A stretch of DNA of 64,000 nucleotides from Cyanidioschyzon merolae. Taxonomy: Eukaryota. This document shows positions 19,564 to 21,160 of the stretch, one piece after another. Where the stretch lies: assembly GCA_000091205.1 (NCBI GenBank), contig AP006487.2, one strand, 5' to 3'. The notes beneath the pieces were generated by a model that did no database searches, was not told the origin of the DNA, and saw only the letters and a list, made by a program, of their open reading frames with translations. Both the position numbers and the translations under genes were made by a program. The first letter of the stretch is position 1; the number at the start of each line of letters is the position of its first letter.

Positions 19564-21160
19564 AACATCATAACCATCGCCGGTTAATATCGGGCACTTT
19601 ATGAAGCGCACCTTTTGGACGTTTTACGCGCAGTAGCCTCACATTTACTAGCATGTGCACCTGGAAACTGATTGAATCGATACTCGGGTTTTCGATGGAT
19701 GCAAATGAGGAGCCGGTGGCGGTATCGCTCGAGTTGGTAGCGACTTCGGCAGAGATGTCGCTACGAGGGCGAGCGGCACTCCAGATGGTCCAAGCTCATC
19801 GTGATATGCTGGACCTCGAACCGGACGGGCGCCATATCCAAAGGATGGTTGAAACGAGATGCCTGCCTCCGTTGCATCTTTTGCTACTGTATGTTCCTGA
19901 ATAGAGCTCTCCAGAGCAGATCAAAGTCGCCGTTTGCTTGCGTTATTGCCTTCTTAAGCAACTGTACGATTTGGTTGCCAAAAGTCAGATTCAGGCCCAG
20001 TGTATCACTGTAGACTCTTCTGCGTCGTATTGTGTATGGCCTTATGAGGGAGCCGCGATCGTTCTCTGTATGAAAGTTTACAGCATTTGAGCAAGTCTCA
20101 TAGAAACTTAGTGGAGCTTGTTCAAGGATCCACTTTAACAGGAAGGATGTGGAAAGAAGTTCTCAGGAAAGATTCAGAACGACGGAATATCAATATGAAC
20201 GCACTTTTTGAAACCCAGGTGCGGATTAAGCTGCGCAACACATTTGCAATCGTTCAAGATATATGAAGAGAAATACTTCGTGGTGAGCGTGGATCAAGGA
20301 TTGACGGGCATCATTGCTATCGCAATGCCTCTCTGTAATGTTGACGGAGCGAAGGATTTGATCAGAATGCAGATTACTTTGCTCAGCTTTTCAGAGGCTC
20401 GATGTAATCTGGAGTCGGTTATGATTCAGGCCAAGAGGCTTACCAACATACGGACTGACAGGGTATCGACCGTCTTCCACACTCTGAGAACCGTATTGGG
20501 CTGTGAAAGAGCTGTGCATGTTTTATTTAGTGAACGCAAAAGCATCCATATGACCGATGCAGACGAACTTTGCAGTCGTGCACGTGAAAGGGCCTTGTTT
20601 GCGAAAGGATTCTAGGGTACGGAGGCAAGAAGCGTGCATTTGCCAACTTGTTCAAAGAAATGAAAAGGCAAATGAGCGGTCAGACTCGTCGTTTGGTGGT
20701 AGAGAATGGCGCTAGACGTGCTGTCTTGTTCAAGCTCTGCACTGGAGCTACTTCAACGAGCGCATACAACGAGGGCAGGCACTGACTCAGCACGATTTCG
20801 ATCAATGAGTTCTGGACAAAACACAAGCATCATATACACGAGTGCACGCTGAAACAGGTAGCGATTAAGTGTGTGAAACAGAGACGAGTGCAAGAGATCG
20901 TATGCAGTAACTCGACAGATCTTGCTGCGAAGGTGTCATTGAAGGCCGGAGGCTCGCTATGCTCCGGTTCCATGTCCAACAATGCGCACGAGTACATCCT
21001 CCATCGAGATTTGAACGCCTCTACAAAAATCCGGAAAAGTTTCTTGCTTCCAAAGTGTCCGGAAGCTTTGCGTAAAGCATAATTTCGAGATCATCGTTTA
21101 GTATTCAGTGTGGGTGTTTCGCGTAAACGCTGAAGACTTCCACTGAAAAAAAACAGATTA
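19564..21160 (+). mobile_element. TnpB/Fanzor-like (OrfB_IS605-type RuvC nuclease) element, copy 1: conserved 353-bp leader plus inactivated RuvC gene
   Basis: The leader 19564..19916 is about 96% identical to 54524..54878. Downstream ORF fragments carry RuvC-I YFVVSVDQGLTGIIAI (20274-), RuvC-II TRRLVVENGARRAV (~20690, in a different frame) and a Zn-finger remnant plus RuvC-III IVCSNSTDLAAKVSLKAGGSLCSGSMSNNAHEYILHRDLNASTKIRK (20873..21082). The reading frame is interrupted. Confidence 0.55.
20208..21082 (+). pseudogene. Inactivated TnpB/Fanzor-like RuvC nuclease gene (RuvC-I, -II and -III remnants lie in three different frames)
   Basis: Motifs as listed for the parent element. Stops fall between ORFs 20208..20615 and 20873..21082, and the RuvC-II segment LVVENG reads only in another frame. 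Confidence 0.5.

Follow-up and report, generated by a model that had tools for sequence, protein, structure and literature searches.

How two broken nuclease genes on one chromosome of Cyanidioschyzon merolae 10D came to be nearly identical over about 355 bp, when the rest of their sequence is only ~57% identical, is the question raised by this locus. The two copies, directly oriented and separated by 35 kb, are within a 64-kb stretch of the C. merolae 10D genome, referred to here as the window, and the features at issue are the following.

19166..21130, + strand: copy 1, a near full-length Fanzor1 pseudogene, matching positions 22-608 of 613 of the A2 family HMM in three frames
54470..56089, + strand: copy 2, a 5′-truncated Fanzor1 pseudogene, matching A2 HMM positions 128-587
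19561..19916, + strand: high-identity block of copy 1, 95.5% identical to 54522-54878, at family-profile positions ~140-255
54522..54878, + strand: high-identity block of copy 2, the partner of the copy 1 block

The preliminary description of the window took both loci for inactivated genes of the TnpB/Fanzor family, an assignment borne out by profile, structure-sequence and fold evidence obtained from intact relatives. Scanning the stitched pseudo-proteins with Pfam and NCBIfam yielded no TnpB or OrfB match, only chance matches (E 0.02-0.08), so the link to the family was made through intact relatives. A profile of both stitched pseudo-proteins found the intact relative P0001 (610 aa; 1120 relatives) with E 3e-36 and 97% coverage, and a profile of 45 family members matched the solved Fanzor1 proteins PpFz1 (E 3e-20), SpuFz1 (E 9e-12) and GtFz1 (E 6e-6); this 45-sequence profile was needed, as phmmer with P0001 alone against PDB sequences gave no match. 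PF07282 matches 11 of the 45 members. Pfam and Fanzor profiles had been named as the check on the assignment: the direct Pfam scan of the pseudo-proteins came out negative and the family HMM on six-frame translations positive, matching both loci with domain E-values of 1e-11 to 5e-20. The AF2 model of P0001 (pLDDT 87, pTM 0.83) retrieved SpuFz1 as its best Foldseek match, over the full length (TM 0.64-0.66, E 4e-14), then PpFz1 and GtFz1, then Cas12 and TnpB; the WED-REC-RuvC-TNB fold is accordingly that of the predicted model of this intact relative only. By profile and fold the window copies belong to the family of the solved SpuFz1, PpFz1 and GtFz1 (8GKH, 9CF0, 9CER; PMC11423790), although the identity of P0001 to these proteins is only 13-17%. 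Unlike the solved nucleases, both loci are Fanzor1 pseudogenes.

As originally proposed, frameshifts and stop codons break both copies, and neither retains the intact ORF of a functional member. In frameshift-aware alignments, copy 1 (19310-21130, against residues 1-610 of P0001) has seven frameshifts and seven stops, one of them terminal, and copy 2 (against residues 62-579) has six frameshifts and four stops. Copy 2 adjoins the upstream region of a minus-strand Tcp11-like gene. The strings first read as RuvC-I, SVDQGLTG in copy 1 and GIDPGSTR in copy 2, are present and align with the family motif vvgiDpGr, and HRDLNAS of the relics aligns with the family's nRDlNAA. The reading of LVVENG as RuvC-II of copy 1 has to be given up: the family reads A-Y-G there, and the catalytic Glu is elsewhere (PMC11423790, PMC10530073). 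The Fanzor1 triad has the order D...E...D (SpuFz1 D383, E541, D606), in which the Glu lies between beta-5 and the TNB domain (PMC11423790). These SpuFz1 residues align with GxDPG, VDEFRTS and NRDLNAA of the family, in which D327 and E505 are invariant and D568 nearly invariant; copy 1 reads INEFW in place of VDEFRTS, and copy 2 has lost this motif. In these alignments copy 1 keeps all three catalytic residues (VSVDQG, INEFW, HRDLNAS), and copy 2 keeps GIDPG and HRDLNAS with no Glu at the aligned place.

The observation that about 355 bp are far closer than the gene bodies holds, and the disparity is larger than first estimated. The block alignment has 357 columns with 15 substitutions and one indel (95.5% identity), whereas the bodies outside the block are 56-57% identical (shuffled controls, 39-44%) and not ~75%. 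The block differs at 15/355 sites (4.2%) and the remainder at ~43%; the block is ~15-fold less diverged than its flanks. Its edges are sharp: differences number 0/124 for the core, 29/76 for the 5′ flank and 52/94 for the 3′ flank, and the two flanks have 52-57% identity. A RIP-like or deamination origin of the high body divergence was considered and rejected, as transitions and transversions are equal in number (303 each) and the spectrum is symmetric.

The block was initially described as a leader 5′ of the gene, but homology to P0001, to the CMe-1 protein and to the family HMM extends farther upstream, as far as 19166 in copy 1 and ~54470 in copy 2. By its alignment the block is decayed coding sequence inside the ORF relic, beginning about 400 bp in for copy 1. 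It corresponds approximately to residues 80-200 of the 610 in P0001, in the N-terminal part that precedes RuvC, matches the family in three frames, and contains the conserved family motifs HRxxLgL and WLKxxxxLxxxLRYFVFLNRxLE; its edges adjoin the family-conserved motif blocks DRNIYS...TNLKN and FVFLNRAL. Within the block, copies 1 and 2 have two frameshifts at matching sites (19634 / 54596 and 19827 / 54789, positions that are alignment-based and in a poorly conserved linker), whereas none of the lesions outside the block coincide. Because these two frameshifts are common to both blocks, the block cannot derive from an intact gene, and the suggestion that an intact trans-acting copy maintains it is not supported.

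Seven metagenome loci were found with the translation of the block, all of them copy 1 or copy 2 among the matches listed, and both copies are present in independent assemblies. Six non-chimeric contigs (L015-L018, L020, L021), each 98-99% identical to the window, carry the block, four in the context of copy 1 and two in that of copy 2. It is therefore highly improbable that the block is an artefact of assembly or polishing, and no less so that both relics received an unrelated short repeat or mobile insertion, an account already largely refuted. Such an account could appeal to other sharply bounded high-identity repeats in the window (531, 601 and 1372 bp) and to the metagenome contig L019, which is chimeric across the block, but both copies have the block in collinear order with the Fanzor1 family and where it would be expected, which excludes independent insertion at the same site. 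L019 was also considered as a real recombinant and rejected; it is probably an assembly chimera, since it has the topology of a circle or duplication junction and its assembly collapses another repeat (L005).

The reading that the evidence favours, with a probability of roughly 0.7, is that the block is a recent tract of non-allelic gene conversion or of synthesis-dependent (templated) repair between dead Fanzor1 copies, so that homogenisation by gene conversion, a fallback in the preliminary description, moves to the front. It is favoured because the copies have frameshifts in common only in the block, the edges are sharp, the strains form a mosaic, and only two loci appear among the metagenome matches listed. 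In a divergent environmental strain (L018), copy 1 has the copy-2 states at five sites in the 5′ part of the block and eight private changes in the 3′ part; in that 3′ part, copy 1 of the window has 6 differences from its paralogue versus 10 from its orthologue in L018. Environmental strains have mosaic, lineage-specific variation at the block edges. A sharp-edged tract younger than its flanks and an incongruence of paralogues and orthologues, two marks of conversion, are therefore present, and flanking homology enough for strand invasion is not, only short motif microhomology at the edges. The tract resembles ectopic gene conversion between dispersed repeats in its length of a few hundred bp, its sharp edges, the direct copies on one chromosome, the lesions common only in the tract and the paralogues that are in part closer than orthologues. 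Classical homologous recombination, however, needs flank identity much above that of the window; since the flanks have only ~57% identity, far below what ordinary strand invasion by homology requires, a variant that uses microhomology or template switching is assumed. Other observations weigh against conversion: the strain mosaic is discontinuous and could also come from a few independent mutations, two copies with an invariant core leave room for purifying selection on the central 125-200 bp, hairpin 1 of the block is among the top ~0.05% of 50-nt windows, the common frameshifts are placed by alignment in a poorly conserved linker, and the metagenome scan, with its two loci among the matches listed, may have missed a third copy of the block.

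The block contains two hairpins, which had been put forward as signs of a functional module.

19726..19775, unstranded: hairpin 1 of copy 1, an 8-bp plus 6-bp inverted repeat, MFE -28.2 kcal/mol
19787..19815, unstranded: hairpin 2 of copy 1, weak, MFE -10.4 kcal/mol, z -2.5
54688..54737, unstranded: hairpin 1 of copy 2, identical to the copy 1 hairpin
54749..54777, unstranded: hairpin 2 of copy 2, identical in the window strain

The inverted repeat of hairpin 1 is genuine and strand-symmetric (z -4.6 for +, -4.9 for -). It ranks 4th-5th among the 50-nt windows of the 64 kb (top ~0.05%), and its counterpart in the P0001 model is residues 124-149, which form a disordered linker. Hairpin 2 is weak: 5/200 shuffles fold equally well. 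An exapted non-coding RNA, protein-binding site or recognition hairpin, occupying the block or a ~200-bp core with the hairpins and kept by selection, could account for the stability of hairpin 1, for the low divergence of the block relative to its flanks and for a core (19687-19810) that is invariant in 9/9 strain and paralogue sequences. This is nevertheless improbable. Background strain divergence is ~1 per 100 bp, at which an invariant core is expected by chance and needs no selection; selection read from the core was accordingly rejected as unsupported. Between strains the copy 1 block has 15/355 differences against this ~1% background, and so is no more conserved than the sequence around it. 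The same 64 kb contains three other hairpins as good or better, some inside ordinary ORFs; folding of the whole block is no better than that of shuffles (z -1.0); the hairpins do not vary across strain and paralogue sequences and show no covariation; and the sequence can be recognised as decayed coding sequence in three frames. No Rfam family matches the whole window at the gathering threshold, or 19100-21400 at E <= 1, and no tRNA was found in the whole window. A narrower version, in which the invariant ~125-200 bp is an exapted structured small RNA, protein-binding site or recombination hotspot, preserved without change at both loci in a very compact genome once the surrounding Fanzor genes had died, is less probable still.

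The proposed analogy with a 5′ guide or omega-RNA-like module, or with a subterminal module of the IS200/IS605 type, is not supported for a block that is internal, coding-derived and devoid of covariation. The likeness to IS200/IS605 hairpins and to the omega-RNA of TnpB/Fanzor amounts to a stable hairpin in an element of the TnpB family. IS200/IS605 hairpins are at element ends, whereas the window hairpin is internal to an ORF relic with no Y1 transposase, and the guide RNAs known from Fanzor follow the ORF on its 3′ side (PMC10530073, PMC11423790).

The transposase linked to this family is DDE_3 (Tc1/mariner-like) and not Y1 TnpA, and its relics accompany Fanzor1 relics in the window.

18310..18760, + strand: weak DDE_3 transposase relic upstream of copy 1, aligned with residues 114-263 of the L001 transposase (score 74, null 31-34)
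13412..14793, + strand: DDE_3 transposase pseudogene (score 273, null ~33), then a CMe-1A-like Fanzor1 C-terminal end
26448..27818, + strand: related relic of the same layout, 98.4% identical to 40961-42331
40961..42331, + strand: related relic, twin of 26448-27818, again with the layout of 13412..14793

The transposase relics of the last three elements are strong. Within 13412..14793 the Fanzor HMM matches 14476-14673; the CMe-1A consensus matches at 75-77% in 14556-14714 (77%), 27435-27665 and 41947-42177. A tblastn match ties 18617-18706, upstream of copy 1, to 41648-41737. The metagenome relative L001 consists of TA-flanked 32-nt TIRs, a DDE_3 transposase and then a Fanzor1 gene, the make-up of the Tc1/mariner elements PUl-1 and PGv-1 that carry a Fanzor1 gene (PMC3627910); Fanzor1c is associated with Mariner/Tc1 (PMC10530073). 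Copy 1 resembles these carriers in its weak transposase relic upstream at matching distance, but the carriers have TIRs and TSDs and none are recognisable in the window copies; no TIRs were found around all five window relics, nor the L001 TIR core in the window.

Knowledge of Fanzor1 relics in C. merolae dates from 2013, when CMe-1A was reported with ~150 copies in the genome (Bao & Jurka, PMC3627910). CMe-1 and CMe-1A are like copies 1 and 2 in genome, in protein family and in being old and mostly decayed (PMC3627910). Where stretches can be matched, the CMe-1 protein has 24-32% identity to the two relics; its identity to P0001 is 43%. Membership in CMe-1A was defined as ~80% DNA identity to its 3169-bp consensus, to which copies 1 and 2 have no DNA match (blastn, word size 7, E <= 1e-3); they also differ from CMe-1A in a longer 3′ tail of their own, ~210-245 bp. 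The lack of DNA similarity and the tail together mark copies 1 and 2 as a separate, older lineage or subfamily. No TIRs, TSDs or transposase were reported for CMe-1A (PMC3627910), whereas the Fanzor relics of the window adjoin DDE_3 transposase relics. The tails are as follows.

21083..21325, + strand: non-coding 3′ tail of copy 1 to the right end of homology, 62% identical to 56090-56297
56090..56297, + strand: 3′ tail of copy 2 to the right end of homology, homologous to the copy 1 tail

Homology past the stop, once put at 60-80 bp, is therefore ~245 bp in copy 1 and 210 bp in copy 2 (to ~21325 / 56297), beyond which identity drops abruptly to 41%, the random level. Fanzor omega-RNA adjoins the right end (PMC10530073), and by analogy the tails of the relics are in the canonical position of the omega-RNA and right end, for which they are candidates only.

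These transposon relics bear on an unlikely alternative, that the mosaic arose at transposition: the relics would belong to different Fanzor1 subfamilies whose masters had exchanged the module, for example by template switching in double-strand gap repair after excision, and the block would be younger through one common, already defective source and not through later exchange between the two loci. Internally deleted derivatives with a transposase relic fused to a Fanzor C-terminus (13412-14793, 26448-27818, 40961-42331) are what abortive gap repair typically leaves behind, chimeras are frequent among Fanzor elements (Bao & Jurka, PMC3627910), and the sharp block edges adjoin conserved motifs. 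A defective master with two frameshifts, however, would need trans-mobilisation, no other member with the block is among the matches listed, and the strain comparison has the block edges changing after the environmental strains had split, which points to exchange at resident loci.

In the favoured reading, a Tc1/mariner-type DNA transposon carried the Fanzor1 gene in the C. merolae lineage, and two ancient copies decayed independently. Long after their divergence, the block would have been copied from relic to relic, or into both from a similar dead copy, as a short tract of non-allelic gene conversion or synthesis-dependent repair. The tract edges would lie at conserved motif blocks, where the diverged copies keep the best microhomology, and the hairpins would be incidental features of the copied sequence. 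The Fanzor1 identity, the internal position of the block, the common lesions, the sharp edges, the strain mosaic and the occurrence of both copies in independent assemblies are direct results; how the repair proceeded, which way the sequence was copied and that it has no function are inferred. Homologous recombination is known to be efficient in C. merolae, and dispersed repeats are commonly homogenised in patches.

The finding is by itself of little importance. The linkage of Fanzor1 with DDE_3, together with the TA-flanked TIRs of an alga-like metagenome relative, suggests a class for CMe-1, which its describers left open, and the exchange of a short tract at ~57% identity may serve as a modest natural case of templated repair that is homeologous or microhomology-mediated.

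Hand-stitched translations of copy 1 (19166-21130) and copy 2 (54470-56089) gave no TnpB or Fanzor match when scanned directly with Pfam and NCBIfam, so the family assignment was made via intact relatives. A two-sequence profile of the stitched translations found one intact metagenome protein of 610 aa, P0001 (E 3e-36, 97% coverage). An exhaustive search showed the family of P0001 to comprise at least 1120 proteins, most of them 600-700 aa long. A 45-member profile of this family matched the solved Fanzor1 proteins of Parasitella (E 3e-20), Spizellomyces (9e-12) and Guillardia (6e-6), and PF07282 was reached by 11 of the 45 members. 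The AlphaFold model of P0001 (pLDDT 87, pTM 0.83) is most similar to SpuFz1, the match spanning the full length (TM 0.64-0.66, E ~4e-14), then to PpFz1 and GtFz1, with Cas12 and TnpB far lower. In six-frame translation, the family HMM covers profile positions 22-608 of 613 at 19166-21115 in copy 1 and 128-587 at 54484-56023 in copy 2. Frameshift-aware alignment identified seven frameshifts and seven stops (one of them terminal) in copy 1, and six frameshifts and four stops in copy 2; both are dead genes. The preliminary description was therefore right to place them in the Fanzor/TnpB group and to call them pseudogenes, but its RuvC-II motif, LVVENG, must be withdrawn. The catalytic triad of SpuFz1, D383/E541/D606 (PMC11423790), aligns with GxDPG, VDEFRTS and NRDLNAA of the family, which has A-Y-G at the position of LVVENG; because Fanzors lack the canonical RuvC-II Glu (PMC10530073) and the catalytic Glu aligns with VDEFRTS, the Glu of LVVENG is due to chance. 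At the true Glu position copy 1 has INEFW; in copy 2 that position has been lost.

The Fanzor1 family described in C. merolae, CMe-1A (Bao and Jurka 2013, PMC3627910), comprises ~150 copies, each ~80% identical to a 3169-bp consensus, and encodes a protein of 734 aa; its describers found neither TIRs nor TSDs and did not classify it (PMC3627910). Its protein is 43% identical to P0001 versus 24-32% to the copy 1 and copy 2 relics. The consensus DNA (supplement of PMC3627910) matches three other relics of the window at 75-77% (14556-14714, 27435-27665 and 41947-42177) and matches neither copy 1 nor copy 2, which therefore form a separate, older lineage of the CMe-1 protein family. Fragments at 14870-15045 (-) and 47350-47519 (+) are 77% identical to nt 79-252 of the consensus, in the 5′ part that Bao and Jurka equated with a separate repeat, TE-N2_CMe (PMC3627910).

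The metagenome contig encoding P0001 (L001) carries a 3.3-kb element in which a DDE_3 transposase precedes the Fanzor1 gene, with imperfect, TA-flanked 32-nt TIRs at 28-59 and 3318-3349. Transposase relics of the window are the following:

13412-14793, composite relic, decayed DDE_3 transposase fused to a Fanzor1 3′ end
26448-27818, composite relic, decayed DDE_3 transposase fused to a Fanzor1 3′ end
40961-42331, composite relic, decayed DDE_3 transposase fused to a Fanzor1 3′ end
18310-18760, weak transposase relic of copy 1 (alignment score 74, null 31-34), spaced as in L001

The three composite relics (transposase scores 225-273, null 31-34) keep just the final 110-160 codons of a Fanzor1 resembling CMe-1A and look like internally deleted elements; the second and third are 98.4% identical over 1372 bp, with sharp ends. 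Copy 2, truncated beside a Tcp11-like gene, has no transposase relic, and no TIRs are recognisable in the window. Taken with L001, the composite relics suggest a place in Tc1/mariner for the CMe-1 family, hitherto unclassified.

The genes of the window are eukaryotic, without introns and on both strands (Spo11, Misato-like, Orc1/Cdc6, Tcp11, thiolase and DUF1295), among them:

1346-2320, DUF1295 ORF, identical to BAM79296.1 / XP_005535582.1 (Cyanidioschyzon merolae strain 10D)

Many metagenomes contain contigs 98-99.8% identical to parts of the window. Direct repeats of 601 bp (6310-6910 and 11959-12559, 98.5% identical) flank a 5-kb segment with the Spo11-like and Misato-like genes; in one metagenome contig (L005) they are joined and the segment is absent, which reflects either a polymorphic deletion or a collapse in assembly. 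A sharp-ended 531-bp repeat (99.1% identity) lies at 17096-17626, upstream of copy 1's transposase relic, and at 28210-28740, on the downstream side of the relic at 26448-27818. Three tandem arrays (periods ~114, 82 and 77 bp) occupy 3110-3751, 29975-30294 and 60675-61254, at least two of them within long ORFs.

The uneven conservation of copies 1 and 2 is even stronger than first stated. A block of 357 columns (19561-19916 versus 54522-54878) is 95.5% identical by blastn, with 15 substitutions (12 transitions) and one 1-nt indel, versus 56-57% for body and tail by global alignment (shuffled controls 39-44%; just 13 gap runs, 303 transitions and 303 transversions), not the ~75% estimated for the bodies. 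Homology ends at ~21325 / 56297, which is 245 / 210 bp past the stops rather than 60-80 bp, with 41% identity beyond.

The block had been taken for a 5′ leader; it is internal to the ORF relic and derived from coding sequence. Homology to P0001, CMe-1 and the HMM extends upstream of it, to 19166-19310 in copy 1 and ~54470 in copy 2, and the block corresponds to P0001 residues ~80-200, ahead of the RuvC domain. It contains three family-conserved segments, NIGHFMKRTFWTFYAQ, AALQMVQAHRDMLDL and AISKGWLKRDACLRCIFCYCMFLNRALQ, each in a different frame. Of the two hairpins described, hairpin 1 (19726-19775 / 54688-54737) forms a real inverted repeat (-28.2 kcal/mol, z -4.6) and aligns with P0001 residues 124-149, an acidic linker predicted to be disordered. 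It folds equally well on the opposite strand (z -4.9), as a DNA palindrome would; within the 64 kb, three other loci have better folds and several more are nearly as good, including some inside ordinary ORFs. Hairpin 2 (19787-19815 / 54749-54777) is weak (z -2.5), and shuffled sequences fold as well as the entire block (z -1.0). Among nine strain and paralogue sequences, hairpin 1 is identical in all nine, hairpin 2 differs in some strains at single positions of its 3′ arm only, never in a compensatory way, and no compensatory change could be scored for either; nor did Rfam give a match. Internal position and lack of covariation and of an Rfam match argue against a structured functional leader. 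The known Fanzor guide RNAs originate in non-coding sequence 3′ of the gene, beside the right end (PMC10530073, PMC11423790). Any surviving ancestral RNA module would be expected in the homologous 3′ tails of both relics (21083-21325 / 56090-56297), the canonical site of the omega-RNA scaffold and the right end; these tails are non-coding, end abruptly and are slightly better conserved (62% identity) than the coding bodies (56%).

Both edges of the block are sharp: differences between the copies number 0/124 in its core, 9/125 and 6/106 in its outer parts, and 29/76 and 52/94 in the flanks. Two frame changes within the block are shared site for site by the two copies (19634 / 54596 and 19827 / 54789), whereas no lesions outside it coincide; the block was thus already defective when shared, not copied from an intact gene. 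An independent insertion into both relics is excluded by the collinearity of the block with the Fanzor1 family, and an assembly artefact is very unlikely given that six non-chimeric metagenome contigs show the block in both contexts. Among the matches listed by a metagenome scan with the block translation, all seven loci are environmental-strain versions of copy 1 or copy 2 (98.2-99.4% identity); the chance that one further, equally represented copy would be missed among these seven is ~0.06.

The block is mosaic in environmental strains. Copy 1 of a divergent strain (L018) has the copy 2 state at five sites in the 5′ part and eight private changes in the 3′ part, because of which copy 1 of the window is closer there to its paralogue (6 differences) than to its L018 orthologue (10 differences). 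With background divergence among strains of ~1 per 100 bp, the invariant 124-bp core is expected by chance and is no sign of constraint, and the whole block differs between strains at 15/355 positions, making it less conserved than background. Selection on a functional core in the two copies is very unlikely, and nothing supports it; origin of a mosaic as early as the time of transposition is somewhat less so, though still unlikely. Taken together, the sharp edges, the shared lesions, the listed metagenome loci, the strain mosaic and the background divergence indicate that a short tract was recently transferred between the two resident relics, which lie 35 kb apart in direct orientation. A transfer has one weak point: at 57% identity, the flanks are too divergent for ordinary homologous recombination. 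Given this, and since the edges adjoin the family-conserved motifs DRNIYS...TNLKN and FVFLNRAL, the tract may have been made by microhomology-assisted, synthesis-dependent repair or a template switch.

Separately, 19837-20036 and 20437-20636 have 16 and 17 differences per 200 bp between the window and a divergent environmental strain (L018 / L019; background ~1%), the former crossing the 3′ edge of the block into sequence not shared by copy 2, a hint that a third, unseen relic resembling copy 1 served as donor in a conversion. L019 (Ga0080006_1116134, 1-8297) joins the upstream of copy 2, the block and the downstream of copy 1; with a topology matching the junction of a circle or of a duplication, it is most probably a chimera created by assembly through the 357-bp repeat.

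The family to which copies 1 and 2 belong as decayed members was known from the C. merolae genome before, and exchange of sequence between repeats, an ordinary process, best accounts for the similarity of their blocks. A structured functional 5′ leader is not supported.
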